From: Escherichia phage Jk06
Strand: one strand, 5' to 3'
Length of the DNA: 46,072 nt
Sequence record: DQ121662.1
The position numbers were made by a program, and so were the translations under genes. The notes under the pieces are model-generated. The model was not told the DNA's origin and ran no database searches. It saw only the letters and a program-made list of their open reading frames with translations. Positions 1,338 through 44,682 of the stretch are shown piece after piece (position 1 is the stretch's first letter; each line of letters opens with the position of its first letter).

Positions 1338-4300
1338 TTACCATACTCCAACCACTACCCTACCTCCATTTGGTAAATTAACAGTTATGCCGTTATTGTT
1401 TATTACGACAGTATTGTTGGTTCCGTTAAACGCGAAGTTACCATTGTTAGCGTACAAACTACCGCGAACGGTAGCGTTACTTAACTCAGCAAAACCAGAT
1501 TTATCAATTGCCCAACCAGCACTACCAGCAACATAGTTGTTTGATTGAATCCTGTTACCAATCTTCGCGTTAGTAATTGAACCATCCTGAATCACCGCGC
1601 TCTGAATGAACACCTGGTTATTCTCCACAACGAAAGGCAGTGACCACTGACCGGATCCAGAACTAATACCGTTGCTGATTGCGAACCTGTTAGCATCGAA
1701 AATGAACTGACTGCGAACATTACCGCCGCTACCTGTTAACTCCATGCTCATACCAGCGCCATACTCAACCCCATTGTACTTAAGGCCTAGCTTGACGCCG
1801 TACTGAACACCAACCCCTTCGACAGTGGCATAAGAGTCAAGCTTCTGATTCAAAGACGCCTCGTTATCACCAAGCCTTGCGCTTAATTGAGTATCAGCTG
1901 TAGCCCTGGCTTCGGTCTCCGTAGCAAGCGCGGTTTCAATTGTCGTAATCTGACCAACAATCTCATCATCAATCTGCGCTTTAAGCTGCGTGAGAGCGTC
2001 CACACGGGCCTGAGTTTCATCAGCAATCAAACTTACAGCCTGACGATATTCAGCCTTCCTTGCGCCATTCTCGCGCTTCATAACGCGAACGTCAGTATCG
2101 TTTGCCAGAGCGTTCTCTATAATTGCCTCAGCCTGATTCTGGATATCCGTGTTTGCATCAATGGCGTTATGAAGTAGGTACTTGTAACCATCAGAGTTTT
2201 CGATATCAACCTTGATATCACCAATTATTGCACTTACGTCGTCAGATGCCATGCCCCTTACAAAATCAGTCCATGGCGATACGTTACCTATCCTGTCAAT
2301 AATCCTCGCTCTGTACCACCTCACGTTACCTGCTGGTAAAGTGGTGTGCCAGTATTCGTACTGAGGATACGGAACCAGTGTAAGCAGCGATGCGCTCTCT
2401 GGATTGTATGTACCGTCACCATTATCAGGAACCTGCTGAAGCTCAGTGTACGCAGTGTCAGCTGAATCAGTAGGAAAACCCCACTTAACCCTAATCCCGA
2501 AAACCTCATCATCAGATGCGGTAATTACAGGCGGCGCCGAAGGTTCCCCAATCTTGCCGGTCAGGCTAACTGTCGTTATATCAGACCAGGCAGATACTGA
2601 TTTCTGGTCAGTTACGGCACGAACCCTTACGTCGTAGATGCCAGCGTAAATTCCTTCAATATCAACCTCGGTGTTAGCCGTCTCTGGTACGTTAATCCAG
2701 TTACCATTGTTCTTACGCCATTGTACGTTGTATGTTTTCGCATACTGCACCTTGTCGTAACCAATAACCATCGTCTCAACGCTTAAACCCTGAACTACCT
2801 TGCTGTAACTAGTAACGGTGATATTTTCAGGTGGTAAAATCCTGTCAGGGTCAACGATACTTGTTGGCCTGTCGTCAATATTCACACCATAGTCAATCTC
2901 GTCATACTTGTTCGGGTCATACTGCACCGCAGTGATGCTGTACTGGAATGAATCCTCGCCGTCCGTGTTTGCTTTTTGAATTCCTGTCACAACGTATTGC
3001 TGCAACGCCAGATTCTGCTTGTCGATTGCAAATACCGTATCCGGCTGAGGTGTGAAGCTGAATGCTGTATTCAGTTCAAGCGTCAACTTATCGGCAGATA
3101 CTGAAGCGATAGTCCTGTACTCTGGGCTCCCATCTGGCTTGTTGATTAAAATCCTGTCGCCAGGGTCAGCATCAATAGCGAATGGCACGAACACCTGCAA
3201 GCCTGTAGCTTCAACAATTCGACCCGAAAGGTTTAATGTGTAGTTGCTTGACCAAGCCTGGTCATTAACGGCAATTACATCACCAATCATCGGAATCATC
3301 CCCTCAAGGCCAGTTGTGAACGTTACCGTTTCACTGCGAAGGTTTGTTTTCAGCAACCAACGCCCGCGACGGTTAGCTTCACTGCGCCTCACGCATCCAA
3401 TTGCAGTCAGGTCTACAGGGTTGTAACCAAACCGGCGAGTTGCTTCTAAATCGAATACTGGCTCGACGTCCTGCTGGTAGTTGTTCTGCTCGTCATCAAA
3501 CTGAACGTTAGCTGTCGTGTAAAGGCTCTTGTCGCTAGAGAATGTCCTGTTAAACAATCCATCAACAACGTTATCATTAGTGAACACATAGCTTGGCTGG
3601 CGCGGCCTGTCTACAACAATCCCGATTTGCTCACCATCATAGAAGGTTAAACCGCGGAAGATAGAACAGATGTCACGAATAAGCTGATACGCTTCCACTT
3701 TCTGCTGAATGACAACGTTACAAGTATATCGCGGCTCCATTCCACCCTTACCATCAGGAACCATCTGGTCGCAGAATTGCGCTGCTTCATACAGACCCCA
3801 TTTATCAATCTCAACACCAAGTTCTCGCTGATCTAAACCGTAACGCTGGCTAACCACCAGGTCATATAAAACCCAGGCCGGGTTGTCAGACCATGCCATT
3901 TTAAAGGTTCCATTCCATGCTCCGCTATAAGTTCTTGTCTCTGGATTGTAGTTTGTCGGCACACGGATAAGCTTCCACTTTTTCTTAATGGCTATCGTTG
4001 GGATGCCATTAGGGAACAGGTCAGAACTGAACTCCACATAAACAAGTGCCGTAAGAGGGTAGCGGAACTTAGCGTCGATTACTTCCTGATAGGTTGCAAT
4101 CTGCATTCCGTTAACCAGAGTGCTACTTGTTGAGTCTGGCGTTAACTTCCTAATACGAACAAGAGCGCTGCTAAACTCGGCTGGTAGGTTAACCCTGATG
4201 CTGCGGTCGTAACCTGTTGTAGTTTTACCGTTAGCCACGCCTCTGGTATATTCCGTGTACGCTGCGCCATTAACTGATAAATCGATTGCATATTCACATG

Positions 4301-4763
4301 TTGTTCCATTTAAATCTCCATTCTCTTCTTGCTTAACTAGTCGAGGCCAGAGCAGTTTAACGCGGATTGCTGATAGCTGACTGTTGTTAACTGCGATGAT
4401 GTAAGGTGTGTCGTTGTTAATTTCACGACTAACCTGAATCTCTGATGCCGCGCCATCTAGTCCTGCGATGTAATCTTGGGATTGAGTGCCGGCGCGAAAC
4501 TCAGCTGTCACACCTTCATAGTTGAATGAGTTATCCTGGTTCTGTACTGGAACGTCAGCAAGGTAAACATCCTTAAGTGAGAAGCTAGAATCAACTTCGC
4601 CATCAGCTACAGCCAGTAGCACCTTAATCTTGTTAAGTGAAATCAGGTTATCTTCTTGCTCTACAGGCGTGTGCGGCTTCTTGCTACCACCCTTGCTTCC
4701 ATAAATCTTTGGCAAATCGGCCATATCATATAACCTCGTTGTTTGTTTAACCATTTGTGCCAT
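1338..4763 (-). CDS. central tail fibre / host specificity protein (lambda J-like), 1141 aa
   Basis: Uninterrupted 1141 aa ORF; segments resemble lambda J by eye; last gene of the tail module after I/K/L/M-like genes. Confidence 0.85.
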   Translation of the reverse strand: MAQMVKQTTRLYDMADLPKIYGSKGGSKKPHTPVEQEDNLISLNKIKVLLAVADGEVDSSFSLKDVYLADVPVQNQDNSFNYEGVTAEFRAGTQSQDYIAGLDGAASEIQVSREINNDTPYIIAVNNSQLSAIRVKLLWPRLVKQEENGDLNGTTCEYAIDLSVNGAAYTEYTRGVANGKTTTGYDRSIRVNLPAEFSSALVRIRKLTPDSTSSTLVNGMQIATYQEVIDAKFRYPLTALVYVEFSSDLFPNGIPTIAIKKKWKLIRVPTNYNPETRTYSGAWNGTFKMAWSDNPAWVLYDLVVSQRYGLDQRELGVEIDKWGLYEAAQFCDQMVPDGKGGMEPRYTCNVVIQQKVEAYQLIRDICSIFRGLTFYDGEQIGIVVDRPRQPSYVFTNDNVVDGLFNRTFSSDKSLYTTANVQFDDEQNNYQQDVEPVFDLEATRRFGYNPVDLTAIGCVRRSEANRRGRWLLKTNLRSETVTFTTGLEGMIPMIGDVIAVNDQAWSSNYTLNLSGRIVEATGLQVFVPFAIDADPGDRILINKPDGSPEYRTIASVSADKLTLELNTAFSFTPQPDTVFAIDKQNLALQQYVVTGIQKANTDGEDSFQYSITAVQYDPNKYDEIDYGVNIDDRPTSIVDPDRILPPENITVTSYSKVVQGLSVETMVIGYDKVQYAKTYNVQWRKNNGNWINVPETANTEVDIEGIYAGIYDVRVRAVTDQKSVSAWSDITTVSLTGKIGEPSAPPVITASDDEVFGIRVKWGFPTDSADTAYTELQQVPDNGDGTYNPESASLLTLVPYPQYEYWHTTLPAGNVRWYRARIIDRIGNVSPWTDFVRGMASDDVSAIIGDIKVDIENSDGYKYLLHNAIDANTDIQNQAEAIIENALANDTDVRVMKRENGARKAEYRQAVSLIADETQARVDALTQLKAQIDDEIVGQITTIETALATETEARATADTQLSARLGDNEASLNQKLDSYATVEGVGVQYGVKLGLKYNGVEYGAGMSMELTGSGGNVRSQFIFDANRFAISNGISSGSGQWSLPFVVENNQVFIQSAVIQDGSITNAKIGNRIQSNNYVAGSAGWAIDKSGFAELSNATVRGSLYANNGNFAFNGTNNTVVINNNGITVNLPNGGRVVVGVW

Positions 4764-4773
4764 TCTACACTAA

Positions 4774-4798
4774 ATAAAAAACCCGCACTAGGCGGGTT
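4774..4798 (-). terminator. hairpin plus U-run between tail assembly I and J-like genes (possible attenuator)
   Basis: AACCCGCACTAGGCGGGTT stem-loop followed on the minus strand by a T-run, about 15 nt upstream of the J start. Confidence 0.4.
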
Positions 4799-4804
4799 GT
4801 GATT

Positions 4805-6873: not shown

Positions 6874-6912
6874 GATATTTCTCCAATAAAAAAGACCCCG
6901 TAGGGTCTTAGT

Positions 6913-10200: not shown

Positions 10201-10352
10201 CTGATTCTTCGCAACCAGCTCAGCGTTTAACGAACTCGCTAACTCCAGCTGCCGCCTGTTCATTGGCACGTTTAAATTCTTGCAGGGACTTTATGCCCTG
10301 GATCAACCTGGCGAACGTCAACGCCAAGAGTGATACCTGCAAATTCTGCCAT
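7295..10352 (-). CDS. tail tape measure protein, reading frame interrupted at about 9.13-9.19 kb, 9.64-9.78 kb and 10.27 kb
   Basis: Track ORFs 9772-10269, 9132-9641 and 7295-9184 are contiguous, coiled-coil rich with a Gly-rich C-terminal part; ATG at 10352 preceded by GGAGG. Confidence 0.75.
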
Positions 10353-14750: not shown

Positions 14751-15587
14751 TTATGCATCAAGCCTTACTAGCTCTATGCATAGGGCTTGGTTTCCATTCA
14801 CAATGTATCCAGCTGTAAATAGATTTATGGTTGCTCTCCACATTGTGTCTGTTGTGGTTTCATAAAAACTAAGAGTGTATGGCCTGATACCTTGGAACTC
14901 TCCAATATCACCAAGAAGTACTGTGCCAGTTTCTGTTGATGTAGATATCGAAGTTCTTACCGTTGTGTTAGTGTAAACTCCAGTTTCATTGAACGCTTCA
15001 ATATTACCCCTTATAGTTCTAGCTGTAGTGCCATCATCAATCCAAGCCCTAATACTAAAACGAATGTTTGAATCCAGTCTTATCCCTATAGAAATATTGC
15101 TTAAAGGTGCTGGAAGCCTAATCATGTGATTAGTGCCTGTGTTTGGTGATGTTCTAACTTTAAGGAATGATCTTGACATCCCTGCGTCACCTTTATCGCC
15201 TTTAGGGCCAATTGGACCTTGAGGGCCAACCGGACCTTGTGGACCTGCTTCACCTGAACCTCCGCCCTCATCACTTACAAAATCACCTTTCGCCAGAGCT
15301 GAAATATAAGCGCCATCCTCGAAGTGGGCATTACCAAACCTTCGCCAGCCCTGTGCTAGATATCGGTTAACCCTGTTAACTAAACCCTGAATTGTGGTGT
15401 CTGATGTAACCATGAAGTCTTCAACGTTGTTTGCTGTTCCTTTTGCCATCTTCATGCCAAATAGGGTACCGCTCAGCATCTGCACGTCGCCATATGGCTG
15501 GAATCCTGATGAAATCATCATTTTTACGTTTCTGGCTAAGGTTTCAGGTGAATTACCTACTGCCATAGCAATTTCTGTGTAAGCCAT
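14751..15587 (-). CDS. collagen-like repeat protein (candidate head fibre / decoration protein)
   Basis: 278 aa ORF with G-X-Y run GEAGPQGPVGPQGPIGPKGDKGDAG between an N-terminal domain and a Thr/Ser/Asn-rich C-terminal domain; RBS AGGAG upstream. Confidence 0.6.
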   Translation of the reverse strand: MAYTEIAMAVGNSPETLARNVKMMISSGFQPYGDVQMLSGTLFGMKMAKGTANNVEDFMVTSDTTIQGLVNRVNRYLAQGWRRFGNAHFEDGAYISALAKGDFVSDEGGGSGEAGPQGPVGPQGPIGPKGDKGDAGMSRSFLKVRTSPNTGTNHMIRLPAPLSNISIGIRLDSNIRFSIRAWIDDGTTARTIRGNIEAFNETGVYTNTTVRTSISTSTETGTVLLGDIGEFQGIRPYTLSFYETTTDTMWRATINLFTAGYIVNGNQALCIELVRLDA

Positions 15588-17268: not shown

Positions 17269-18022
17269 TAATTAAATTCTCCCATTTAGGAACAGCCCAG
17301 CAACGACACCCGTATTGCTGACCGGGGAATATCGCAAGGCCGTCAAGTTTTCCAGCGTCCGAACCATCTGATTTAAAGCTAACCCCCTCACGCAAAACGT
17401 GAGATGGTCGCTCTTTGTCGTCAAGTCTACCACGCCAAACATACTGAGATACACCGGCATCTTCAAGCCTTCTCCGCATAAGGTTTGAGTTTAGAGACCC
17501 TGTAATTCCAGCAGCGATATTTGCTGTTCTCTTTCTGTAGATTCGGTATCTATCATCAAGGTCAACAGTGTTACCAGCCTGCGCAGTAATGGCGTTGTTT
17601 ATGAAATCATCCTTGATGTTGTTTAGCAGCTTTGATGCACTTAACTGCGTGCCAACAATCCAGGAGTTCCTGGTGTCGAGCCACCATGGTTCATCCGCGT
17701 TAATACCATACAATCCTAGCGCAAGAACTACAGGATTATTCTTACCTCCGGAGTTGTTGGCCACCTTAAGGAATTGCGCCGAGTTATAACGATATATTGC
17801 TAGCGCCAGCGCAGGCAGAGTGGAAACAAAACCAGATAGCAGCGCTGAGATTGCATCTGAAAGGTCTGAATCTTCATCTTCAATCTCCTGCGCTGTGTCA
17901 ATTTTTAGCCTCTTTGCAGATAACTTCATTTGCTCAATAAGTTCAGATACCGCAACCAAAAGGCTGCGGTTAATCTGGCTCTCAATTATTTGCGGATACA
18001 TCCAGCGGGTCTTCTGATTCAT
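17258..18022 (-). CDS. minor head / head morphogenesis protein (Mu F-like, SPP1 gp7-like)
   Basis: 254 aa ORF ending with a GCRCWAVP-type Cys motif; directly downstream of the portal gene. Confidence 0.7.
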   Translation of the reverse strand: MNQKTRWMYPQIIESQINRSLLVAVSELIEQMKLSAKRLKIDTAQEIEDEDSDLSDAISALLSGFVSTLPALALAIYRYNSAQFLKVANNSGGKNNPVVLALGLYGINADEPWWLDTRNSWIVGTQLSASKLLNNIKDDFINNAITAQAGNTVDLDDRYRIYRKRTANIAAGITGSLNSNLMRRRLEDAGVSQYVWRGRLDDKERPSHVLREGVSFKSDGSDAGKLDGLAIFPGQQYGCRCWAVPKWENLINEE

Positions 18023-19255
18023 TAATTACAACCTCCGTTTGAATTGAGCCTTCACCAATCTTAACCTCAGTTGAAATTGCGCGCAACGTATCTCTTGCTT
18101 CGTCTGCGTCAATGATTCCAGCTGCAATCAATGCAGCAACTGAGTTAACATTCTTCTCAAGAATCTCAGATTTATCCTTGTCACTAACCTGCGATAGAGG
18201 GTTAAATTCTACTGACCACTCTTGCTCGGTTACGATGAACGGCAGCAGGAACTCAAGCAGAGGCAATAATTCAGCCTTTCGCTTACGGTCAACATAACCG
18301 TAGAAAGTCTCTAGAGCAGTGTTCTGGCTTGCTGACACACCACCAACATTCTTACCCTTAAGGATAATCTCATGAATACCGCTCAGAGCAACGATTCGAT
18401 CGAACTTCTGACTCAGAAATGTATCAATACCGCCAATATCTGAGTTGAGAACGTTGTACTCTTCACTATCCGCGTCAATCCCGATAGCCTGACCAACGCC
18501 ACTGTTATTATCCACTTGAGCCAGACGTAAACGAGCTGCTCCATCTGAATCATCACATAAGTCAGCAAGGCCTTTTGCTTTCCACACTCGCCTGCTGTTT
18601 ACGACGAAGTAACTGAGTAGCTCAGTCGCTCACAGTTCTGATAGTCGTCAATCGCGTCAATTAAGTCACTCAGTTATTACTGCTTGCGCTCCCAGCCATC
18701 GTTATTACGACGTAGGTTGTTAGGTACTCGCTCGCCATCAATGATGTGACAGCGTGTATAGTGCACATCGTAGAACGTTGCCGACCCGTTTGGCGTGATG
18801 CGGTAAGTTAATGGCTTACCAAAACGCGCGTTACGTGGATTCTCCTCGCGAGTCTGGACCTTAATTTGCTGCCGGTCGTATACACGAACCGTTTCAAGCT
18901 CCGCACCTTCACGAACCGGGCTGGTTAGCGCCCTTCCATCCTTCACAATTGCCACTACAGCAGCGCCACCGTATAGTCTCGCCCAGGCTAGTGCGTCGAT
19001 TACGTTATCTGAAAGGCCTAAATCATCCCATCGCGACCAGAATGCACCCTCATCATCAATGCCTTCAATGTTAAAGCCTGCGCCAAGCGCGACCTCTGGC
19101 ACGATATCAATAATTCGACGAACCAACGCACTACTGACGTAAAGCTGCTCAAGCTGTGCTGGAGCTGTCAGGCCAAGGCCGCCAAACTTTCCGTAAATCT
19201 CGCTACCATCAATCCCGTTAAGAAAGATGTTTGCGTAGCTATCTGCTTTTACCAT
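17982..19255 (-). CDS. portal protein, frame interrupted near 18590-18680
   Basis: Track ORFs 18677-19282 and 17982-18587 are contiguous; likely start MVKADSY at 19255 with RBS GGAG. Confidence 0.75.
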
Positions 19256-19716: not shown

Positions 19717-19760
19717 ATTATAAGCCATCCATGGCGATTATCTTTACCAATTCGTGCTAT
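19717..19760 (-). promoter_or_regulatory. promoter module variant (IR-like ATAGCACGAATTGGTAA, 22 nt, TATAAT)
   Basis: Reverse complement of 19744-19760 matches the repeated IR motif with one change; perfect TATAAT at 19717-19722 on the minus strand. Confidence 0.5.
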
Positions 19761-21323
19761 CTAACGCCAGCTAGCCTCATTAAGCGGGCTCTCGGATCGT
19801 CACTCAAGTTCAATTCACAGTTGATGGCCATTGTTGTCGTATCCACAATGTCATCATGGGGATGAGAATCGTCAGCAGTGAACGCCGAGAACTCGGTTAA
19901 TAGCGAGGTAAGCCATGGCGCAGAGTCAGGCAGAACTACGTTACCAGCTTTAATCTGTGGCAGTGCGCTCATCACCCTGGTTAACTTATCTGTATCTGGA
20001 ACGAAAGGCTCGATAGGAGTTCGCATTACCCGACCCGCCGACTGGATAAGTCCTATTCCAGACGCTTTCTTCTCGATAATAACCTTGCGCAATATACCAT
20101 CTGTCTTACTAGCTGCTCTATGCTTACTCTCAAAGTCCAGAAGAGTTTGCTCAAGTTCAGGTGCTTCCCATTTACCCCTTACCATATCGAGAAGATAAAG
20201 CCTGTTATCTTTGCGCCCCCATAGCTGGAATACTGAGTAGTCGCTATAACTCTTAGTAGTCATGGCAGTATCAGCCGTAATGAATCGGTAGTCATACTTG
20301 GCTGGAGGTCTGTTATTCTCATCGAGGCGAACAACCAATCTACGTTGATCAGGTTTCCACCCAGAGCTACTGGAGATTGTTGGTACTGGCTAAGGAATGT
20401 GTACGGATCTGAGTCCCACATTGCCATCAAGTCATGCACAGATTCCTTCTGCGGGAAGTAGCTGTAATACTTAACACCATCTCGCTCGACGTACTCGGAT
20501 GAAAGCACGTCCTTCTCGAACTGCTCACGAATCCAGTCAGGGAGTTCATTCACATATTCTTCAGTGACCAGCGCCGGTATCTTCACTACATCAAAGTCGA
20601 TACCCATACCACCAGAAGTCATGAACCACGTTGAATCCTGAGTATGAAGCCTTTGCTGAATTGACAGAATTGGCGTAGCTTTACCTTTAACGCTACTCGC
20701 CCTACGTGAGCGAATGGTATTTTTAAGTAAAACGTGGACAGCTTCTCGCCTTACCTTGCTGAGCATATCGTCTGGCTTGTCTGGGTCATCAAGCATCAAG
20801 CAACCGCTATAGGTTTCAGTAATATAACCGCCACGAGCGCCGGTAATCTGACCGCCAATTGCCTTAGATATCGCTTCGAACCTAACCTTTCCACTCTCGT
20901 CAAGAACCTGAATCTCGTCATCCTTGCACGTGCCGAACTTACAGGGCCATAGTTCCTGAAACTCACTGACTTTATAAGGTCGCGAACACGCTTAGAGTTG
21001 CGCTTCACCAGACTGTCAGAGAATGAGAGGCTCAGATTTCGCACCTTCTTTAGCTTAAGCATTGAATATACAGGGAAGTGTATTGAAGTAATCTCGGTCT
21101 TCCCGGCCCCAGGAGCCACGTTAATGATGGTATCCCTACGCTCGCCACTAATAACCTCGTCAATTATTCGGCAAAGGTACTTGTGATGCCAGTTAGGGAT
21201 GTATCGCTCTCCCTGGCTTAGCTGAAACCACACGCGAAGGAATGCCTCGAAGCTGTGAGTGGACAGCGCTTTAACTGCCAGCTTTTCGGCTGGCGTCATT
21301 TCTTCCCAAACTAATGTCTTCAT
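19757..21323 (-). CDS. terminase large subunit, frame interrupted twice (about 20260-20340 and 20796)
   Basis: N-terminal fragment has Walker A VAPGAGKTE; C-terminal fragment has a nuclease-type acidic motif; three overlapping track ORFs 20796-21323, 20260-20799, 19757-20338. Confidence 0.85.
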
Positions 21324-22137: not shown

Positions 22138-22213
22138 TGGTGTTCCGCACTGGACTCGAACCAGTAACTGAGACTTAGGAGGTCTCTGCGTTATCCTGTT
22201 ACGCCAGCAGAAC
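22138..22213 (-). tRNA. tRNA-Arg (anticodon CCT), 76 nt with encoded CCA
   Basis: Hand-folded cloverleaf: 7 bp acceptor stem with one G-U pair, D-arm GCGT/ACGC, anticodon stem GAGAC/GTCTC with loop CTCCTAA, T-arm ACTGG/CCAGT with loop TTCGAGT, discriminator A, CCA. Confidence 0.75.
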
Positions 22214-28216: not shown

Positions 28217-29808
28217 ATGATAATGTTTGATTTTAATGATGACAAATTGACTGTTGAACAAGTAATGGCTGTTGCCGCTCAGGATGGATTACCTCCTTTA
28301 CGTGTTGCTATTAATGCGAACGGTTATCGCCAGAGCGCATCATTCTGGAAAGCTCCGGTTGAGATTGATTCTACTGGCGACAAGTATCCTGTTATCTCGC
28401 TTGGTAACGACTATGATGTAGTTGGCAAACTATCAAGCAACATTGCTCGTTCTGTTCAGTTTCCTGAATCATCTGCTTATATGCACTTCCTTGGTTGCAT
28501 CTCGGCAGCTATGTTAGGTCGCTTTACGGTTGAGTATCACGGAACTCAACAACCAACATCACTGTATGTAGTGACCAGCCAGCCTCCATCAACTGGTAAA
28601 TCTGCCATTAACTCGCTGTCTCTGGCTCCAATGATTGCAGAGACTGAGCGACTAAACGATCTGCGTAAGCGTGACCGTAAAAAGATTATGGCCAAGCTGT
28701 CGGCTCTGGCTAAAGAAATGAAGCAGGAGAAGTCGCCTTCTGAGATGGCTGGTTTGTTTGAGGAGAAGGAGGAGCTGGAAGATAAGCTCGAGAAACTTTG
28801 CGACATCGTATTCCCTGTATCTGATACTACTCCTGAAGGTCTGGCACGCATTAACCATCGTCAGGGTAGCTTCGCTGTCATCTCGGATGAGGCGACGAGC
28901 GTCAACTCACTGCTGGGCATGACCTATGGTGATGGAACAAAGAAAACAAACAGCGAACTGGTACTTAAGGCCTGGGATGCTGGTAACGTATCTATCGCGC
29001 GTGCGAACGCAGAGAACAACATGAGCTTTATTGCTATGGGGTGTATTTCTGTAATTGCGCAGGATGAAACAATAGTCGCAATCATGAATGCTGGTGCTCG
29101 CGGTATTGGTGTATCCGAACGTTTCTTGCTTGTGCGTGAAAAGTCATTCCTTGGTGAGCGTGTTTTCGTCGATGATAATGGCGAGTCAACATATGAGCCG
29201 ATTGACGGAGCGTGAAGGGCTGATTACTTCCGTCTTTGTTCATGAAATTATGAGTGAGCAAGATGTTAAGTTGACTATTAGTAACTCAGCAATGAAGCAC
29301 CTTAACCGTGCTCGACAGGAAAATGGAGCCACACCTTGCAGATGGCGGTAAGTATTCACACACAATGCTGCGCGGCGCGTTAGGTAAAATGGATAAACAG
29401 GTAATTCGCATTGCTGCAGTTCTTCACACTATCCGTAACTGGTTTAACCCCAATGGCGGTAGTCCGCAGAAGTCCAGGGAGATTGAACTGGAAACCATGC
29501 AAGAGGCTTTGTTGATGTTTGGAGAACTTAGTAAGACTTACTTATCCTCAGCTAACGCAGCTGGTCATGCTGGCGATAACGCTGAGATGAACAAGTTAAT
29601 TGATATCCTTATCAAGCAAGGCAAGAACAGTAAAGGAGTTGTGGGTTTGCGTTCACTTTATGAAGCTGCGCGTAAGGTTCGACCTTTCGAGTCACAGGCT
29701 GGTGTTATGGCTAAAATTAAAGACCACTTACTGCCGATGCTTGATGAGAAAAACTATACCTGCCTGATTGGTGACAAGGTATATATCAATCCACGGCTGC
29801 TGGGGTAA
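28217..29808 (+). CDS. P-loop NTPase-like protein (about 530 aa), reading frame interrupted between about 29215 and 29310; long paralogue of 24675-25235
   Basis: Track ORFs 28217-29215, 29088-29351 and 29308-29808 are contiguous; Walker A-like SQPPSTGKSA; N- and C-terminal segments match the short paralogue. Confidence 0.55.
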
Positions 29809-36232: not shown

Positions 36233-38178
36233 TTAGAACTCCTTATTAGCAATATTATCGCCACCTTTAGCGGTCTTGCGGTGAGTTACCCTCTTAGGAG
36301 CATGGATGTACTGCGAATACTCCATAATCTTGCGAGCATTGCGATATGCAGCCATATATCGCTTAGCGTTCATGTCGACTACGTGACCTTTAATTCCATT
36401 GTTCAACCAGAGTGTTTTACATACTCGATGGTCAGACTCTACGAAGAAAACCTCATGAGCTTTAAATGTCCCACCCATGCCATCATCAAGGATGTAGTTG
36501 TAGATGATTCCTGATTGGTTCTTTGTTAGCCCAACCTTAAAGTCAACAACATCAAACCAGTCGTTCTTGCGGTAATGTTTGCCGCTTAACTTGAGATTTG
36601 GATCAAGCAAAGTGCAATCGCAACCCCTACAAATCTTAGCTGCAACGTCATTCTGAACTCCGCAGCCTTTAACGATAACCTTTCCGGTTCGTGGGTCTTT
36701 CTGGTCTTCACATGTGCGACTAACCCAGAAATATTCGCAGCGATTATTATTCTCATCAATATGCATGCAACGTCGAGCAAAGAAGCTGTTCTCTGTTCCG
36801 CATACTGGACACTGCTTAGTCTCCTTGCCATTATCTTTCGTAGCTGATATTGAGCCTGCTCAAGAATTGGATTGAAGTACAATGATGCCATAGAGTCCAT
36901 CGTTCCTGCGAAGTCCAGTACCAAATGGTCATTCTTGACCATTCCTTTATCTTCATGGAGCTTCTTAAGCTTACGCATTCCTCGACCAAGTAGCTGAACC
37001 AGGAGCGTAAGGCTACCAATCTTACGCAGAATAACGCTTGTATCCCATGTAGGCACATTTACGCCAGTGGTTAGCGCCTGAACCTGAAAGCAATATTTAA
37101 TCTCCCCGCTAAAGCACTTATCAAGCAACTCCTTGCGCTGCTTCTCGCCAGTCTTTCCAGTTATAATGCAGAACTTTTCACCTTCAGGAAGGTAACTTGC
37201 GGCTTCGTGGCAATGGCGCTCACCTGCGCATGTTACCAGAACTCCATTCCTGTCTTTCGCGGCAAGCCATACTTTCTTCATTATCTCCGCTGTCATTGTT
37301 CCAGATGCCTGAATCTTTTTATCCATGGCTTCAAGCTGGGCTTTAGTGTAATCCTGAACACCATCTTCAGATGATGCATCAAACTCTGACAGGTCGTAAC
37401 CAACGCCATCAGTAGCACCAAAGTTTGTCGGAACCACGGAACCGAACTCGACCAGGTAGTTTGTATCGATATTTGTGACCGTCTCACGCCAAAATCCCAA
37501 CTCCTTTTTATTTTCAACAACTATTGGCGTAGTTCCACGGAAAGGAGAACCAGTCAGTCCAAAGATACGAAGATTCTTGCCATACTTAGCACGGCAGCGC
37601 TCCATTAAAGTCAGTATGATTACCGTATACTGGCTACGTCCCTTATCTGATGCCTGTTGCGCAGTCTCATTGTTATCTAGAGCCTCAGCCACATCCTGGT
37701 CATCAACATGGTGACACTCATCAATAGCAACTACCGCAGGGCAGAAATCGCCAAGTGACCTCTCAAGCCCGCCAACTACTGTACCCTCAGAGCCAACCAC
37801 CACAGGGAAATAAGATGATTTTATTCCAAGCCCAGAGCAATAGATGGAGTTAGGAACCCCGTAATCAGAAATCTCAGAAGCATTCTGGCTAACCAGCTCT
37901 GCCTGACGAGCAAGAACAAGCATAGGCAAGCCAAGCTCAGAGCAACGCTTAGCAACCATACCAAAAACCAGAGTCTTACCAGCAGAAACTGAAGCCATTG
38001 CGATAAATGGATGCTCATAGCGACTAATGCGCTTTGCAATCTCATTGTACATAACACACTGATAGCTATACGGAACCATACCGTTAGAAGAGGTGAATTT
38101 AGTTTGAATCTCTTTAATCTTATCTTCGCCCAATTCTTCAATCTGTTTTTGTATTGTTTTCAATCGGTTTTCCATAAT
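36233..38178 (-). CDS. SF2 DNA helicase with C-terminal zinc-ribbon region, frame interrupted near 36800-36840; start taken at MENRLKTIQ
   Basis: Motif I SVSAGKT, motif II DECHH; Cys-rich C-terminal continuation CPVCGTEN...CRGCDC in ORF 36233-36766; the first 16 track codons overlap a promoter module. Confidence 0.75.
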
Positions 38179-38189
38179 ATCAAATGCCT

Positions 38190-38256
38190 TTAATGTTTGT
38201 TCGATTGACGATATAATAACAGCCATCTAAACCAATGTTTAACAAAAAGTGCTATT
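38190..38256 (-). promoter_or_regulatory. early promoter module upstream of helicase
   Basis: IR TTTAACAAAAAGTGCTATT at 38238-38256 (reverse orientation), then TATATC and CAATCGAACAAAC leader before the internal ATG at 38178. Confidence 0.45.
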
Positions 38257-38267
38257 GAGGTGAGAAA

Positions 38268-38741
38268 ATGGATTCAATTGACAAGCGTACTCTTAATGGT
38301 AACAACGGAACAGTTCGCACAGAAGACAAGAAGCCGCGTAAGCGTCCATCAGGTTACTATGTACTAAAGGATGAAGTGAGAGCAGGATTAAGGTCGCGCC
38401 TTGAGATTGTATTGGACTTCTACGGCAGCAAGGCCAATCTAGCTAAGCAGCTAAAGGTTACGCGCCAGGCTGTAGAAGAATGGTGTAAGCGGGGAATGAT
38501 TTCAGCTCGCGGCGCACAGCTTGCGCATAATCGATATAAGCGAACTGGCGAGGGGTTCAGGGCTACATTCTGCCGACCTGATTTACAGTTCGACGGTAAC
38601 GGCAAGCCTCTAACACTGCGATGCAAGAAGCGTCAGATGCTTCGAGTTGTTACAGAAGCTGAGCTAGCAACCAAGCCGCAGCGTAAATCATGGCGAAAGG
38701 TTAAGAAAGAAAGAGAAGAAGCACGAAAAGCTAAAGAGTAA
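38268..38741 (+). CDS. HTH DNA-binding protein (Cro/YdaS-like transcriptional regulator) with basic C-terminal tail
   Basis: Helix-turn-helix-like segment LAKQLKVTRQAVEEWCKRGMIS; RBS GAGGTGAG; 157 aa. Confidence 0.55.
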   Translation: MDSIDKRTLNGNNGTVRTEDKKPRKRPSGYYVLKDEVRAGLRSRLEIVLDFYGSKANLAKQLKVTRQAVEEWCKRGMISARGAQLAHNRYKRTGEGFRATFCRPDLQFDGNGKPLTLRCKKRQMLRVVTEAELATKPQRKSWRKVKKEREEARKAKE

Positions 38742-38793: not shown

Positions 38794-39717
38794 ATGAATT
38801 ACGACAAGAATGAAGTAATACCTAAAATGGCTGGATTGTGGAAATCATTTTATGCAAAGGAGCTTGGTTGGAATGATAGACACCTTAGCAAGAAGCACGG
38901 GCCGTGCCCTTATTGCTTTGGTACTGACAGATTCAGGTTTACAGACGAAATAGGAAGCGAAAAAGGTAATGGGGCCGCAGTTTGCTCTAAGTGCGGCAGT
39001 GACTCAGGAATAGGCTGGGTTATGAAATGTTCCGGCCTTAGATTTGCGGAAGCTATAAATTTACTTGGCGACTGGCTTAATTTGACTCCCGTCGAAATCA
39101 TAGTGAAGGCAAACAAAGCAGCGAGCCGAGTTCAGAGATATAACTTTGGCGCTCAGGCATCCATTGAATCAATCGAGAAGGTAATCTCTCGCACCAAGTC
39201 TGTAGAAATGACACAGCTTACGAGATTTGAAGCAATTATTACTGAACGGGAATACAAAATAGGAATAAAGGGGTCTGGAGAAGAAATTATAGCCGAGCAA
39301 TGCTTTATGGTTTACGAGGATGGTTTATCAGATGAGCCTTGTAACGTAAAGTTTATAGATGAAGAGGGTAATGAGTCATATCTCGCAAAAGACTACACTC
39401 GCGGCTCGGTTGTTCCGGTAAGTAAATGTAGTGATGGCGCTATCTACCTCACTGTTGGCTGGATTAACGCACTACATGTATCGGCATGCACAAAAAGGAC
39501 AACTTACGACTGCCTAACTCACCACAACTTAGAAATGGTTGCTTATGAACTCAGGAATAAAGAGTGCAGGATAGCTTGCTTAGCTGATGAAAAGGAGTCG
39601 CTTTATGTTGCTGATGATAGAGGTCTAAAAGTCGTAATACCTAAAGGTGGCAATTTCAAGATGGGGCTTGAAAGAAGGTTATATAACCCGCAAGATCTGA
39701 TAGATAAGCATTCATAG
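38794..39717 (+). CDS. DNA primase (zinc-ribbon plus Toprim-like)
   Basis: N-terminal Zn-binding pattern CPYCFGTDRFRF...CSKCGSDSG typical of phage/plasmid primases; 307 aa. Confidence 0.7.
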   Translation: MNYDKNEVIPKMAGLWKSFYAKELGWNDRHLSKKHGPCPYCFGTDRFRFTDEIGSEKGNGAAVCSKCGSDSGIGWVMKCSGLRFAEAINLLGDWLNLTPVEIIVKANKAASRVQRYNFGAQASIESIEKVISRTKSVEMTQLTRFEAIITEREYKIGIKGSGEEIIAEQCFMVYEDGLSDEPCNVKFIDEEGNESYLAKDYTRGSVVPVSKCSDGAIYLTVGWINALHVSACTKRTTYDCLTHHNLEMVAYELRNKECRIACLADEKESLYVADDRGLKVVIPKGGNFKMGLERRLYNPQDLIDKHS

Positions 39718-39721
39718 CAAT

Positions 39722-39746
39722 CACCCTCTTCGGAGGGTTTTTTATT
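39722..39746 (+). terminator. intrinsic terminator
   Basis: ACCCTCTTCGGAGGGT hairpin followed by TTTTTT. Confidence 0.6.
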
Positions 39747-39795
39747 GCATTTAATCTGATACAATAGGTTTCATCTATCAAATAGGAGAAATAAC

Positions 39796-42012
39796 ATGGC
39801 AATTTATGACGCTGGAACTGCATCGCTTGCAGCTGACGGAACTGTAACTGGTGTTGGCACCACGTGGAGGCAACCACTAACACTAATCCGAGTTGGCGCA
39901 ACAATGATTTTTAACACCACCCCGACAAGCATTGTTACTATCGCTGAGATTTTAAGCGATACAGAGATTCGTGTATTCAATGATAAAGGTTTTACTGCGC
40001 CAGCTGGGACTCAGTACTCAATCCTTGCTCATGACGGAATTACTGTCCAAGGTCTTGCTCAGGACGTTGCTGAGACACTTCGTTATTATCAGTCCCGTGA
40101 AACAGAGGTTGCAGCGGCAGTTGATGCTTTTAATCAATTTGATTCTGATTCTTTCCAGCAAAGCGTAAATAATGTCAACATGCAATCTCAGCAAGTTGCT
40201 GTTGATGCTGCTCAAGTTTCTTCTGACAAAGATCAGGTATCTTATGATAGGCAGTTAGCTGAAAGTAGCGCTAACTCGGCTTACTCTTCAGCTACAATAG
40301 CAAGCTCTGCTGCGGCTTCTGTGTCATCTGCTCTTGTAGTTGATTTCTCAAATGGTGGAGAAATAAACTCAAGAACTCAGCCTGCAATTTACTTTAATGA
40401 CAATCATGTTTCGGTTTATTACTGGTCTGGTAGCGTTCCAAAATCCATACCACAAAACTCATCACCACAGTCTACAGGTGGTATTGGAGTTGGTTTTTGG
40501 ATTCAACAGGATTACACAAGAAGGTTTGAATCAGTATCAGCAATGACAAACTCTGCCAGAATTTATGACTTAGAGGTTGTCTATTGTGATTCTTACATTG
40601 GTGGTCTTGGTTATGGTGGTGGGTTCTTTGTTTGTAAGCCGGAGTCATCGTTATCATATGGATTATCTTCAGGATTGGTTTTTGAATCAAGTACCGGTTA
40701 TTACTGGGAAAGAATCTGTAGCGGGGAGCTGTCGCCTTGCGAACTTGGAGCTATTAAGTCATCGACATCAGACTCAACGACACAGATACAGCAAATCCTA
40801 GACTCTGGGCTGGCATTAAAGCTTGATAGCGACTACATGGCATCAAACCTGGTAATGAGAAATAAATCTTGCTCTATAATTGGTTTTGGCAAGCACAAAT
40901 CAAGAATAACTCAGCTTAGTTCATCAATTGGCTCTTTAATTGAGGTATCTGATTCTTGCTCGCTCATTCATATTGAAGGCATTGCTCTTTACGGCACTGG
41001 AGCCCAGCAAGACACGGCGTTTACTGATGGTACTGCTGGGATTTACATCCCTACGCCGACTGGGTTATCAACCAATTACCCATTCAACACTGGTGCTGAC
41101 CCTAGGAGGGACTTAACGATAAGAAACACTCACATTGCTGGGTTTGATGTTTACGGAATTTTCGTTGCTGCTGGTAACTACTCTCCTGTTCTTGATGATG
41201 TTCTTATTCAGCACATAAAAAAAGACGGATTGATTAACGAAACAACAGACTTCACATGGAATAACATACAGGTAAACACCTGTGGAAGAAATTGTCTAAT
41301 ACTTAGGAATGCCGGAAACTGTAGGATTGTTGGCGGTAAGTTTATTTGGTCGGGTTGGTCGGCTTATAATGAGCTTGATGATGCTTATGGCATCCTGATT
41401 GATAACTGCCAAAACATCACCATGTCAGCTATAGAGGCGCAGGATTGCGGTGGTGACGGTGTTAGAATTGTAAACTCTAGAAATGTGGTATTTAATGGAT
41501 TAAATAGTAACAGGAACAGCATAAACTCAAACTACAGAGATTATAACGTTTCGTTTTCAAATAGCTCTGTAAGAATCTATGGTTTTGTTGGGCTTAACTA
41601 TGTATCTAACAATGGCGATGGAAGGCCAACTTCCGCTGGCAACTTCAGATTCCTTGACTCAAGATCTGATGTTGTGATCGATGGGGTTGTTGAATCTGGT
41701 TACTTTGGCCCAAATTTCTCAGGGGACACTAACTATGTTGCTGAGTATTCAGGAAACCTGAAGATAAACGGACTGATAGACAAAAGGAAGACAAGAATTA
41801 AGCCAGCAAACGACACTTCAGCTTTTGATGGGGTCTCTAATACACCAGTATTCGCCGCAGCGGCATCATCAGTTGGGCAGCAATATTGGCTAAGGCTTTC
41901 ACAGGCAAATAAAGATAAGATTATATGCACTGGATTTGACCCGTCACTAGGTTTCACCGCTACATGCAATATATCGCCGACCATAACTGTTGTGAAGACT
42001 TTAACCTTATAG
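39796..42012 (+). CDS. tail fibre / tailspike protein with probable right-handed beta-helix domain
   Basis: 738 aa uninterrupted ORF; fibre-like N-terminus MAIYDAGTASLAADGTVTGVGTTW; Asn/Gly/Ser-rich repeats with periodic hydrophobics in the C-terminal two thirds. Confidence 0.65.
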   Translation: MAIYDAGTASLAADGTVTGVGTTWRQPLTLIRVGATMIFNTTPTSIVTIAEILSDTEIRVFNDKGFTAPAGTQYSILAHDGITVQGLAQDVAETLRYYQSRETEVAAAVDAFNQFDSDSFQQSVNNVNMQSQQVAVDAAQVSSDKDQVSYDRQLAESSANSAYSSATIASSAAASVSSALVVDFSNGGEINSRTQPAIYFNDNHVSVYYWSGSVPKSIPQNSSPQSTGGIGVGFWIQQDYTRRFESVSAMTNSARIYDLEVVYCDSYIGGLGYGGGFFVCKPESSLSYGLSSGLVFESSTGYYWERICSGELSPCELGAIKSSTSDSTTQIQQILDSGLALKLDSDYMASNLVMRNKSCSIIGFGKHKSRITQLSSSIGSLIEVSDSCSLIHIEGIALYGTGAQQDTAFTDGTAGIYIPTPTGLSTNYPFNTGADPRRDLTIRNTHIAGFDVYGIFVAAGNYSPVLDDVLIQHIKKDGLINETTDFTWNNIQVNTCGRNCLILRNAGNCRIVGGKFIWSGWSAYNELDDAYGILIDNCQNITMSAIEAQDCGGDGVRIVNSRNVVFNGLNSNRNSINSNYRDYNVSFSNSSVRIYGFVGLNYVSNNGDGRPTSAGNFRFLDSRSDVVIDGVVESGYFGPNFSGDTNYVAEYSGNLKINGLIDKRKTRIKPANDTSAFDGVSNTPVFAAAASSVGQQYWLRLSQANKDKIICTGFDPSLGFTATCNISPTITVVKTLTL

Positions 42013-42025
42013 CTAAGGGACTGGT

Positions 42026-42508
42026 TTGGAGTTAATAGTAATGCTCTTACTGCAGTATAACGTGATGGCATCAGGAGAACACAGTGTCTCATTGTTAATA
42101 TCAGCATCAGGTGAAACAAGAGTTTTATCAGGTGTGTTGCCAGTCTCATCAAGAATGGTCAACGGTGGTACTTACAATATTGCTCTTGGTTTTGATGTAT
42201 CTGGTAAGGTTTGGTGGAGCATCTTAAACCTGAATACTGGATTTAGAGTTAGAAGGTCATTTGATTCTCAGTATATAGATATTGATGTCAGACCTATACT
42301 AACAACAGCTGGTAACTATGTAACCATGTATTCAGGTCAAGGCGCTGGTGATGTAGCTTGCTCTGGATATGGCTTTGGTGTTTACGTTGGCAGCTATTCA
42401 GATGAGTCTGATTATTGCGCTTCAAGATACTATTCGCTTAAAGGTGGTGTTGATTTGACAAAACAATCAGTATTTTTGAGTTTGAATGGTGATGTAACGT
42501 CACAATAA
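42026..42508 (+). CDS. hypothetical protein downstream of tail fibre gene (possible fibre-associated protein)
   Basis: 160 aa ORF, Gly/Ser/Tyr-rich; ends at a bidirectional terminator. Confidence 0.4.
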   Translation: MELIVMLLLQYNVMASGEHSVSLLISASGETRVLSGVLPVSSRMVNGGTYNIALGFDVSGKVWWSILNLNTGFRVRRSFDSQYIDIDVRPILTTAGNYVTMYSGQGAGDVACSGYGFGVYVGSYSDESDYCASRYYSLKGGVDLTKQSVFLSLNGDVTSQ

Positions 42509-42536
42509 AAAAGCCCCGAAAGGGGCTTTATCTTTT
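42506..42536. terminator. bidirectional intrinsic terminator AAGCCCCGAAAGGGGCTT
   Basis: Same hairpin as 1314-1331, flanked by an A-run and a T-rich tract, between convergent genes. Confidence 0.6.
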
Positions 42537-42539
42537 GCA

Positions 42540-42962
42540 TTAAAACGGAATATCCTCTTCATCACTAAATCGGCTTTGTTGCTGCGGCTGCTGTCTCTGT
42601 TGCTGTTGAGCTTGTTGTCGCTGCTGCTGCTGTTCTGATTCACCTCCTCGCTGACTAAACATCAATCGAGGATTCTGCAACTCAAGCGTAATATATGTCT
42701 TGCCATTATGTTCGCGCTCATTAACCGCTAATGAATCGCCGCTCACAGAGATAACTTTTCCTTCCTGGAAGGCTTCATCATACCAACTAATCTGCGCCTC
42801 ACTAGCAAACATCGTAATCCGGTAATTGGTATACTTACGCTCGCCATCTTTAGTCTTGTATGATTCGCTTATTTCGATAGCGTACATTTTCCAGTTGCCT
42901 TTGGCGTTCTGACCATCTTTAGTGAAAGGAGCCTTACGAATTACGCCTGTTAAAGTATGCAT
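42540..42962 (-). CDS. ssb: single-stranded DNA-binding protein
   Basis: 140 aa; Gln-rich linker and acidic C-terminus ending DEEDIPF, the classic bacterial/phage SSB tail. Confidence 0.8.
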   Translation of the reverse strand: MHTLTGVIRKAPFTKDGQNAKGNWKMYAIEISESYKTKDGERKYTNYRITMFASEAQISWYDEAFQEGKVISVSGDSLAVNEREHNGKTYITLELQNPRLMFSQRGGESEQQQQRQQAQQQQRQQPQQQSRFSDEEDIPF

Positions 42963-43009
42963 TTTATATTCTCTTCTCGTTTGATTTTGGGGCCGAAGCC
43001 CCGTTTAGT

Positions 43010-43658
43010 TTAGAACTGCTCGATTGATTGTGATTCTACTACTTCATTAGTTGCGTTTGCAACTTTTTTAGCGACTTCCTTTGGCTTAGCTGGGTTGAAG
43101 CCACTTGCGGAAGCCATTTTGATCTCTGCTTGTTTATCTATTATCGCTTTCTCTACTATACCCCACGTTGCCGTGTCAGCTTGTGATTTGCATGATTTGT
43201 AGATTTCGATAAGCTCTTCTCGAGTTTCTGCCTTCTCAATATCGCGCTTCCAGTCCTTGACGCTCTTAACTGACCATCTGCGCATCATCGTCAGACTGAC
43301 TAATTCCCAAAGCCGCCGCTAGTGAGTAACGCCGAGCGTATGTAAATGCAGATCCTACTCCTTGCGGGTCTTTCTTAACGATTGGCATAATCATGAAGAA
43401 GCTAACCCACTCGCCAGAAACGTGATAGAGAGTCGTCTCTACGTTAAGATTGTCAGCAGTTGATGTTTCTAACATGCTCTGCATAATCATTAAGTCGTTA
43501 TCATCAAGTGCTGGGATTACAGCCTCCAGCATGGAATCAAGTGTTGCGTATCTATTCTTTAGGTGACTGTTCTGCTTGTCTCTTGCTGCCTTCGCAAATC
43601 CTGTGCGAGCTTTAAATAGTGCCTGTAAAACTGTTTTGTTACTCTCTGAAGTCTTCAT
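43010..43658 (-). CDS. putative single-strand annealing protein (ERF-like), two overlapping ORFs, possibly one interrupted gene
   Basis: ORF 43266-43658 has a [14 protein letters not shown]-type motif; ORF 43010-43288 overlaps by 23 nt; promoter module upstream. Confidence 0.4.
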
Positions 43659-43670: not shown

Positions 43671-43733
43671 TTGTTGTCGATGAGGTAACTATACCCCATC
43701 GATTTAATACCGTTTTAGCTATTCGTGCTATCT
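43671..43733 (-). promoter_or_regulatory. early promoter module (IR, TATAGT, CATCGACAACAAAG leader)
   Basis: IR at 43714-43733, TATAGT on the minus strand at 43688-43693, leader at 43671-43682. Confidence 0.55.
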
Positions 43734-43845
43734 TCGTACTTCTTCATCTCATACTCAGGAACTTGCAGTTCCATCTCTGTTTCGCCAAATCCGTAACCAG
43801 GCCAAATATCAAGTTTCTTGCATTGCTTGTATGTGGATAGGGCGC

Positions 43846-44682
43846 TCATGTATTGCAATCTACCAACCTTAAGTGCTCTTTTGTTATCGTGTAGCACATT
43901 GGAAGGAATGGGCTTTTCTTTTCCTGGCAAAGAAGCTGAACAACAACTCGACGCTTCTCATTAAAGGCGCGAACAAACAAATCATGCTGAAGCGCCATTT
44001 TTAGCAAATAACCATGCTTGAAGGCCAATCTCCCAAATCCAGATGGAGATGCGTCGCTAGTCGTCTTGTAGTCACGGATATAAACTACATCATCAACGAC
44101 ATCGACATGGTCAAGACGAACCTTAACGCCGCACTCGTTAATCTCACCGAAGATTGATAACTCTCGCTGAGCGGTTTTACTGTTCACTATCGCATTGTAT
44201 GCAGGAATGCCACACAGCACCTCTCGCATCGCATGTACTGTGTCAAAGTCTTTAGCTGATACAATCTCGCGACCGTTCGCTTTAACCTCGATAGAGCGCT
44301 GAATATCCCACCATACGTTAAGTGATTCACCGGCTCAGCGCCAGAATCTCCATTAATTCTGGATAATCCTTACCAGATGTTCCAGCAATACCCATCGACT
44401 TCAACCGAGTTGCCAAAGCAGTCTGCTAGTAATCAGATCCTCAAACTCTTCTTGCGCTGGCTGGCGATAGTAAGTCGCATCGAATACAGAGTTTTCAAGA
44501 ATAACCGTGTGGGCTAATGTACCGAACTTTAACGCCTTATTGCTATCATCATGCTCTGCAAACTTATAAGCAGCGGGGCAAGTTGAGAAGATGTGAGCCA
44601 GACCAGAGCCAGACACATGGTCTGACTCCTTGTGGTAGGCTTCGTTGGTTAACTCGTCGCTAGTGTAAACCTTGAAGCTCAT
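43846..44682 (-). CDS. PD-(D/E)xK family exonuclease, reading frame interrupted at least twice
   Basis: Fragments 44401-44682, 43846-44229 and 43715-43930; motif VRLDHVDVVDDVVYIRDYKTT; adjacent to the annealing protein and SSB genes. Confidence 0.5.

Follow-up and report, generated by a model that had tools for sequence, protein, structure and literature searches.

The O157:H7 O-antigen is the substrate of TSP2 (ORF211; PDB entries 5W6P, 5W6S, and 6W4Q), a glycosidase tailspike of the myovirus CBA120 (Ackermannviridae), the gp10-like N-terminal region of which joins a branched complex of four spikes. Among the Drexlerviridae, the tailspikes DpK2 of phage RAD2 (7LZJ) and Depo32 (7VYV and 7VZ3) of Klebsiella weberviruses are capsule depolymerases which target the K2 capsule, not an O-antigen, and consist of an anchor, a coiled coil, a beta-helix, and a C-terminal domain. 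DpK2 has an N-terminal triple-helical bundle (PMC8552709) and has been located on the tail appendages of RAD2 by immunogold labelling. In a P22-type E. coli prophage tailspike (P0004, 785 aa), the receptor-binding body is carried by the P22 head-binding domain (Pfam Head_binding PF09008) of a podovirus-type tail. The lateral tail fibre gene of the Drexlerviridae (orf26 in T1) occupies a family-wide hypervariable locus in which the genes follow the order helicase, regulator, primase, fibre, ssb, erf, and exoVIII (BASEL collection; Maffei 2021, PMC8594841, S1C Fig), and only the 5' end of the fibre gene is conserved across the family.

The stretch of DNA analyzed here, which will be called the window, is the 46,072-nucleotide sequence recorded for Escherichia phage JK06 (DQ121662.1), a Rogunavirus belonging to the T1-like family Drexlerviridae, and its genes follow the same order at this locus. 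A preliminary description based on the sequence alone placed a fibre gene of 738 aa and a downstream gene of 160 aa on the plus strand between primase and ssb, and a J-like tail tip gene on the opposite strand, and the corresponding open reading frames are indeed present at these positions (Table 1). There is every reason, however, to regard positions 39796-42508 as a single gene encoding the 905-residue lateral tailspike of the Rogunavirus group, which is split in this record into 738 and 160 aa by five missing bases. This gene is the orf75 of JK06 together with its fragment; the published orf75 primers (JK-75) match the window exactly at 41304 and 41812, and the product expected from these sites has the published size of 509 bp.

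Table 1. Positions of the tailspike gene, its parts, and the neighboring features in the window.
Feature	Position	Strand	Remarks
J-like gene	1338..4763	-	
Primase	38794..39717	+	
Terminator-like hairpin and T-run	39723..39738	+	3' of primase, 5' of the tailspike gene
Shine-Dalgarno AGGAG	39784..39788	+	7 nt before the ATG; read directly
738-aa ORF	39796..42012	+	Start ATG
N-terminal anchor, codons 1-116	39796..40143	+	Common to Drexlerviridae lateral tail fibres and tailspikes
Long helix, codons 117-176	40144..40323	+	AlphaFold H117-176, pLDDT 50-63
D1-type tailspike head domain, codons 182-237	40339..40506	+	Pfam Tail_spike_N PF18668
D3', right-handed beta-helix catalytic D3, and start of beta-sandwich D4, codons 242-732	40519..41991	+	TSP2 homology
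Asp485	41248-41250	+	Aligned to TSP2 catalytic Asp506
Glu547	41434-41436	+	Aligned to TSP2 catalytic Glu568
Asp550	41443-41445	+	Aligned to TSP2 catalytic Asp571
Corrupted stretch	41992..42049	+	Five single-base deletions relative to relatives
160-aa ORF	42026..42508	+	Start TTG
Rest of D4, codons 754-905 and stop	42050..42508	+	Second frame; true part of the "160-aa gene"
Bidirectional terminator hairpin	42510..42529		Common to the convergent tailspike and ssb genes
ssb	42540..42962	-	

The tailspike is 98-99% identical to Rogue1 gp46, AKS96 gp32, C119 gp29, and BECP10 ORF34, and these Rogunavirus orthologues share with it both the position between primase and ssb and the flanking terminators. 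In eight close relatives it is encoded by a single ORF of 905-925 aa (905 aa in AKS96, Rogue1, BECP10, C119, e4/1c, and AHS24, and 925 aa in a phiKP26-like contig), whereas no uninterrupted tailspike reading frame was found in the window. Residues 1-732 of the 738-aa ORF correspond to residues 1-732 of the AKS96 protein, and residues 9-160 of the 160-aa ORF to its residues 754-905, with which they are identical at all 152 positions. In between, the window lacks five single bases present in four relatives, all in the 59 nt from 41992 to 42050; these deletions shift the frame, scramble the part corresponding to reference residues 733-753, and introduce the TAG at 42010-42012, and it is because of them that the ORF is split in this record. 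The exact junction sequence of the window had no match in IMG/VR, while the intact version was found twice. When submitted alone to Pfam, the 160-aa ORF matched no family, and it was PHROGs that resolved its nature: in PHROG 4818 (tail fiber, 896 positions), the 738-aa ORF covers positions 1-733 and the 160-aa ORF positions 747-896. What had been taken to be a separate downstream gene thus encodes the C-terminal part of the tailspike itself. The hairpin upstream of the gene is annotated in AKS96 as a rho-independent terminator, and the counterpart of the downstream hairpin is annotated there on both strands. The interval from the primase terminator to the tailspike start yielded no sigma-70-like promoter, and promoter-like sites were fewer than expected from shuffled sequences. 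An antisense 139-aa ORF (41733..42152) was discarded as an ORF-finder by-product within the coding region.

The five missing bases most likely reflect a base-calling or assembly error. The window shows 123 indels in comparison with Rogue1, and 10 of the 25 larger genes are spread over more than one frame in this record, including those encoding TerL (three frames), the portal (two), the tape measure (four or more), and the helicase. Since TerL, portal, and tape measure are essential and no phage in which they are broken could be viable, the split in the tailspike is attributed to the record, and the JK06 sequence has been reported to contain numerous errors and frameshifts (Kropinski 2012, PMC3496638). 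It is very unlikely that the frameshifts are real and that the JK06 stock carried a pseudogenised tailspike, with a 738-aa product devoid of most of D4 and the 160-aa ORF as a dead remnant. The stop codon is certainly present in the sequence as given, the copy in the record of phage UDF157lw is likewise broken, at another site, and laboratory hosts having no O-antigen could relax the selection on the gene; yet this would require five separate 1-nt deletions in 59 nt of a gene which is otherwise about 99% identical to those of its relatives, the supposed remnant shows no decay, JK06 is listed as O157-specific, and neither the other broken genes of this record nor its reputation for errors favors a biological cause. 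That a natural truncation inside D4 occurred in a stock still infecting O157 strains is highly improbable; if it were true, either D4 would be dispensable or infection could bypass the tailspike. UDF157lw has been described in its own paper as lacking a tailspike, probably because the record of this phage contains a comparable 1-nt break.

Sequence homology and the structural model both indicate a depolymerase-type tailspike with a parallel beta-helix, as the preliminary description had supposed. The intact orthologue aligns from residue 242 to residue 895 with residues 24-673 of 5W6P (E 5e-174), the alignment running without a gap through the split point, and its identity to a Kuttervirus TSP2 is about 45% over 654 residues. 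D3', the 11-turn beta-helix D3, and the beta-sandwich D4 align end to end, the part of D4 encoded in the second frame corresponding to TSP2 residues ~775-915. The five active-site residues of TSP2 (D506, E568, D571, R594, and Y623) are all conserved in the window's own ORF, where R573 and Y602 accompany the three acidic residues listed in Table 1. The AlphaFold monomer shows a beta-helix followed by a beta-sandwich (pLDDT 80-96 over residues 180-600), and the top Foldseek match of this model was TSP2 (6W4Q/5W6P; E about 5e-55, target TM-score 0.70), the next match being at 1.6e-16. As residues 1-108 have a pLDDT below 50 in this monomeric model, nothing is claimed about the fold of the anchor. 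The Pfam Beta_helix match on the 738-aa ORF was below the gathering score (20.7 vs 25.9 bits) and was therefore left out as proof of the fold.

The N-terminal attachment regions are unrelated: unlike TSP2, the window protein carries a Drexlerviridae anchor, which would attach it to a siphovirus tail. A tblastn search detected this anchor in 838 phage records, among them those of T1, where residues 1-118 are 53% identical, and of Klebsiella weberviruses. Residues 1-175 match the depolymerases 7LZJ, 7VYV, and 7VZ3 (phmmer, E about 1e-35), several PHROG tail-fiber families match residues 1-180 only, and the T1 protein (728 aa) has only residues 1-179 in common with that of the window (42% identity), its distal part being unrelated. 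The long helix following the anchor is predicted and probably forms a trimeric coiled-coil stalk, and the Tail_spike_N domain was detected with an E of 2e-13 (50.6 bits vs a cut-off of 25). The overall plan is the same as that of DpK2 and Depo32, but the relationship of the beta-helix bodies is remote, with 10-12% identity in the fold alignment. The body of P0004 is 47% identical over 634 residues, and in the prophage tailspike this body is found on yet another, third type of anchor.

Besides the protein receptor engaged at the J-like tip, the tailspike very probably recognizes the O157 O-antigen, a polysaccharide of the cell surface; a second receptor of this kind had been suggested, and the TSP2 homology, the identity of the host serogroup with that of TSP2, and the behavior of phage BECP10 speak for it. 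This near-identical phage needs wzy and rfaJ, and periodate prevents its adsorption (PMC8402813); JK06 is listed as O157-specific, the phages carrying the same tailspike allele have an O157-restricted host range, and the plaques of UDF157lw have halos. It is most doubtful that the intact protein might be an adhesin binding the O-antigen without cleaving it, or might act on a glycan other than that of O157: the identity to TSP2 is admittedly only 45%, and TSP2 itself also gave halos on O-antigen-less mutants, but the conservation of the whole active site, the halos of UDF157lw, the restricted host range, and the O-antigen requirement of BECP10 all argue against this. An identity of 45% nevertheless does not prove that the glycosidic bond cut is the same as in the case of TSP2.

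The following course of events can be envisaged. The tailspike would form a homotrimer, which would be docked to the tail tip by its first ~116 residues and the coiled coil, as in other Drexlerviridae; the D3'-D3-D4 body would bind the O157 O-antigen, which may be cleaved endoglycosidically in an inter-subunit cleft by Asp485, Glu547, and Asp550. This cleavage would carry the virion through the O-antigen layer, after which a receptor-binding protein associated with the J-like tip would engage an outer-membrane protein receptor. Proteomic data on AHP24, AHS24, AHP42, and AKS96 virions include the 124-kDa J-like protein among the seven gel bands reported, and the 97-kDa tailspike is absent from these seven proteins identified by MS.

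There are two further readings of the split. Small chaperone genes often occur 3' of tail fibre genes, and since a 160-aa ORF with a TTG start does exist, a tail fibre gene followed by that of a small accessory protein (an assembly chaperone or an adhesin) might be considered. This is extremely improbable, however: the 160-aa ORF is in-frame C-terminal sequence in every intact relative, it has no Pfam family of its own, it aligns to D4 of the single-chain crystal structure of TSP2, and the split falls inside strands E734-742 and E751-758 predicted in the AlphaFold model. Programmed ribosomal frameshifting joining the two ORFs, which lie in adjacent frames only 13 nt apart, has practically no chance of being the explanation, given that five separate shifts would be needed to restore the reference protein, there is no slippery site, and the relatives encode the protein in one frame with no single conserved shift site.

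The functional reading is correct but ordinary: the gene bears a tail fibre annotation in JK06 and its relatives, the locus has been described family-wide, and the O-antigen dependence of an orthologue has been shown experimentally. Full-text literature searches yielded no paper linking the Rogunavirus tailspike to TSP2, and the occurrence of a TSP2-type O157 body, 45-47% identical, on anchors of the siphovirus (Rogunavirus) and P22 types was not mentioned in the open-access papers searched. The present comparison has a corrective value, as no separate protein should be assumed for the 160-aa "gene" and the reported absence of a tailspike in UDF157lw is probably to be put down to a break in the record. 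In addition, the TSP2 structure provides a template, with D485, E547, and D550 as candidate catalytic residues, for engineering O157-specific siphovirus tailspikes.

The idea that this gene is a swappable host-range cassette holds as far as swapping is concerned, but its location cannot be taken as a sign of mobility. In AKS96, Rogue1, BECP10, C119, e4/1c, Sf12, Opt-719, and T1 alike, the gene is flanked by the primase operon on one side and the convergent ssb-erf-exoVIII operon on the other, and a site next to the replication genes which is fixed throughout the family is not in itself indicative of mobility. With Sf12 and Opt-719, the DNA homology breaks off at codons ~100-137 and is found again from the stop codon onwards, and in e4/1c the identity is 95% for the tailspike and ssb but about 82% for the flanks; these sequence comparisons indicate that the swapping is real and takes place within the gene, after the anchor. 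The distance of more than 35 kb from the J-like gene given in the preliminary description proved to be an artefact of linearisation. The ends of the window are contiguous in Rogue1, and genomes of this group show circular permutation (PMC4070988); the stops of the tailspike and J-like genes are therefore about 4.9 kb apart, and the interval between them is occupied by the receptor-binding-protein locus and recombination genes.

The region under study is 98.5-99.1% identical to that of the Rogunavirus phages AKS96, AHP42, Rogue1, C119 and phiJLA23 (Drexlerviridae, Rogunavirinae), most of which were isolated on E. coli O157:H7, and the gene carries a tail fibre or tail spike annotation in every relative. 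Two plus-strand ORFs, ORF1 (738 aa) and ORF2 (160 aa), are present where the preliminary description had placed them. Two primers made for JK06 "orf75" have perfect matches in the window, at 41304-41327 (+) and 41789-41812 (-), and the amplicon they predict has the published length of 509 bp; ORF1 is therefore the gene known as orf75 in JK06, its "putative tail fibre gene". The two belong to a single gene, and the reading of ORF2 as a separate downstream gene does not hold: in the relatives it is the C-terminal part of a single 905-aa protein. This single ORF was found in AKS96, Rogue1, BECP10, C119, e4/1c and an AHS24-like contig, and a single ORF of 925 aa in a phiKP26-like contig. The 896-position profile PHROG 4818 (tail fiber protein) is covered by ORF1 at positions 1-733 and by ORF2 at positions 747-896. 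Residues 1-732 of ORF1 correspond to AKS96 1-732 (726 of the first 731 being identical), and ORF2 residues 9-160 are identical to AKS96 residues 754-905 (152/152). DNA alignment with four relatives showed that five single bases are missing from the window within 41992-42050: the first deletion shifts the frame, giving six wrong residues and then a TAG at 42010-42012, and past the fifth deletion a second frame encodes the true C-terminus. Since the corrupted residues 733-753 overlap strands E734-742 and E751-758 predicted in the AlphaFold model, the "gene boundary" lies inside a folded domain.

Features of the tailspike locus, genes broken in the record, and segments of the tailspike protein
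Feature	Position	Strand	Remark
ORF1, 738 aa	39796..42012	+	ATG start
ORF2, 160 aa	42026..42508	+	TTG start; frame differs from ORF1
AGGAG	7 nt 5' of ORF1 ATG		
Cro-like regulator	38268..38741	+	upstream of ORF1
Primase with zinc ribbon	38794..39717	+	upstream of ORF1
ssb	42540..42962		downstream; convergent with fibre gene
Terminator-like hairpin	39723-39738		3' of primase
Bidirectional hairpin	42510-42529		between fibre and ssb
Tape measure	7298-10352		broken, at least 4 frames vs Rogue1
Portal	17985-19255		broken, 2 frames vs Rogue1
Large terminase	19760-21299		broken, 3 frames vs Rogue1
gp66-type helicase	28223-29805		broken, 3 frames vs Rogue1
Erf	43013-43658		broken, 2 frames vs Rogue1
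Exonuclease VIII	43718-44682		broken, 2 frames vs Rogue1
ATP-dependent helicase (647 aa in Rogue1)	36233..38226	-	overlapping 546-aa and 177-aa ORFs; 1-nt deletion near 36833
Tailspike N-terminal segment	residues 1-175		matches DpK2 (7LZJ) and Depo32 (7VYV/7VZ3), depolymerases of Klebsiella phages, E about 1e-35
Long helix	residues 117-176		AlphaFold model
Pfam Tail_spike_N	residues 182-237		E 2e-13
Tailspike body	residues 242-895		CBA120 tailspike protein 2 (5W6P/5W6S/6W4Q), E 5e-174, 45% identity; split point ungapped

The split is very probably an artefact of the record, a real truncation of the tailspike in JK06 being a minor alternative. In the whole-genome comparison with Rogue1, the window shows 123 indels, which are mostly single-nucleotide and frequently occur in bursts, and 10 of the 25 larger Rogue1 proteins are spread across at least two frames. 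Among the ten are the large terminase, portal, tape measure, both helicases, Erf and exonuclease VIII, and a plaque-forming phage cannot carry all these breaks. No exact match to the junction sequence was found in IMG/VR, where the intact version is present, and the fact that JK06 is among the listed O157-specific phages implies a working tailspike. These data, along with the numerous errors and frameshifts noted in this record by Kropinski et al. (2012), strongly favor an artefact, and the record as a whole is unreliable for ORF calling. The split in the ATP-dependent helicase is a further record frameshift adjoining the fibre locus. In UDF157lw (OQ243221.1, 2797-5513), the tailspike is also split (CDS 2797-4473 and 4407-5513), by a 1-nt deletion at the equivalent of window position 41435; the halo of UDF157lw more likely stems from this split tailspike.

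The nature of the protein was analyzed using the intact C119 orthologue (905 aa, 99% identical) as the query. The beta-helix previously proposed was recovered in the AlphaFold model (32-sequence alignment; mean pLDDT 69, 80-96 over residues 180-600), where a beta-helical strand ladder is followed by a beta-sandwich, as well as in the homology with CBA120 tailspike protein 2 (TSP2). The best PDB matches to the model are TSP2 chains (E about 5e-55, target TM-score 0.70), the runner-up being TSP4 (1.6e-16). TSP2 is the tailspike conferring O157:H7 specificity on CBA120; its active site comprises Asp506, Glu568 and Asp571, plus Arg594 and Tyr623, and all five are conserved in the window's own ORF (D485, E547, D550, R573 and Y602). 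The gene, its family-wide locus, the BECP10 receptor class and the fold of the 45%-identical homologue are already known. The relationship between the Rogunavirus protein and TSP2 is stated in none of the open-access papers searched; it adds a minor point to what is known and does not define a novel type of system.

In the light of the homology, fold, catalytic residues and synteny established here, a mode of action can be proposed. A trimer would dock on the tail tip via its family-specific anchor; DpK2, which has the same anchor, was seen by immunogold labelling on tail-tip appendages of the siphovirus RAD2. The body would bind and hydrolyse the O157 O-antigen, giving the virion access to the outer membrane, where a receptor-binding protein linked to the J-like tip would then engage its protein receptor. 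Experiments on BECP10, a 97-98% identical phage, support this scheme: infection is restricted to O157; resistance results from Tn5 insertions in wzy and rfaJ, adsorption is abolished by periodate, and the authors implicate tail spike ORF34, the orthologue of the window's tailspike. A caveat comes from gel-band proteomics of four relatives, in which the 124-kDa J-like protein was identified and the 97-kDa tailspike was not. [quoted passage not shown] (2021). Since these authors linked the RTP allele to LptD-targeting phages, LptD may be the terminal receptor of the window phage.

The site beside the replication genes is an ancient, fixed trait of the family. T1 has the same gene order (helicase (-), regulator, primase, fibre (+), ssb, erf, exoVIII (-)), Maffei et al. 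(2021) described the same locus with conserved, syntenic recombination and primase/helicase flanks, and the 116-residue anchor is present in 838 phage records. The separation of more than 35 kb between the tailspike and J-like genes merely reflects the arbitrary point at which a circularly permuted genome was opened. Window ends 1 and 46072 are adjacent in Rogue1 (26526/26527), so that distances read along the linear record mislead when they span the ends; the two genes are really about 4.9 kb apart. The interval 39739-39795, which separates the primase terminator from the first codon of the tailspike, yielded no sigma-70-like promoter, a result of note for the late expression of a virion gene that lies among replication genes.

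The idea of a swappable host-range cassette holds, the unit of exchange being the portion of the gene past the anchor. Homology with Sf12 covers the stretch from the primase up to 40094 (codon ~100), is then lost, and picks up again at 42500; for Opt-719 the corresponding breakpoints are 40208 (codon ~137) and 42507. T1 orf26 (728 aa) has only residues 1-179 in common with the window tailspike (42% identity), and an E. coli prophage tailspike joins a P22 head-binding domain to the same body (47% identity). In e4/1c, the tailspike and ssb (39779-42967) are 95% identical, whereas the flanks are about 82% identical or unalignable, which indicates that the whole unit was recently transferred. An HNH endonuclease gene occurs between ssb and erf in e4/1c (region 3291-6987), exactly at the 3' edge of this segment, and in C119 (5292-5786); only a 47-nt spacer (42963-43009) is present there in the window. 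Homing-endonuclease co-conversion might have aided cassette movement. The fibre slot of Sf12 (2021-3217) holds only a 398-aa protein, the first 100 residues of which are 98% identical to the window anchor; its label in one record version, "winged helix-turn-helix DNA-binding protein", looks like a misannotation.

Elsewhere in the window, Rogue1 gp21 (481 aa, with GPVGP repeats and a tail fiber protein annotation) has a homologue at 14754-15587 (-) that remains in frame although about residues 145-311 are missing, in agreement with the internal gp21 region reported to be absent from JK06 (Kropinski et al., 2012). The window also has a single tRNA-Arg (anticodon CCT; 22138-22213, -), which has been reported for Rogue1 and JK06.
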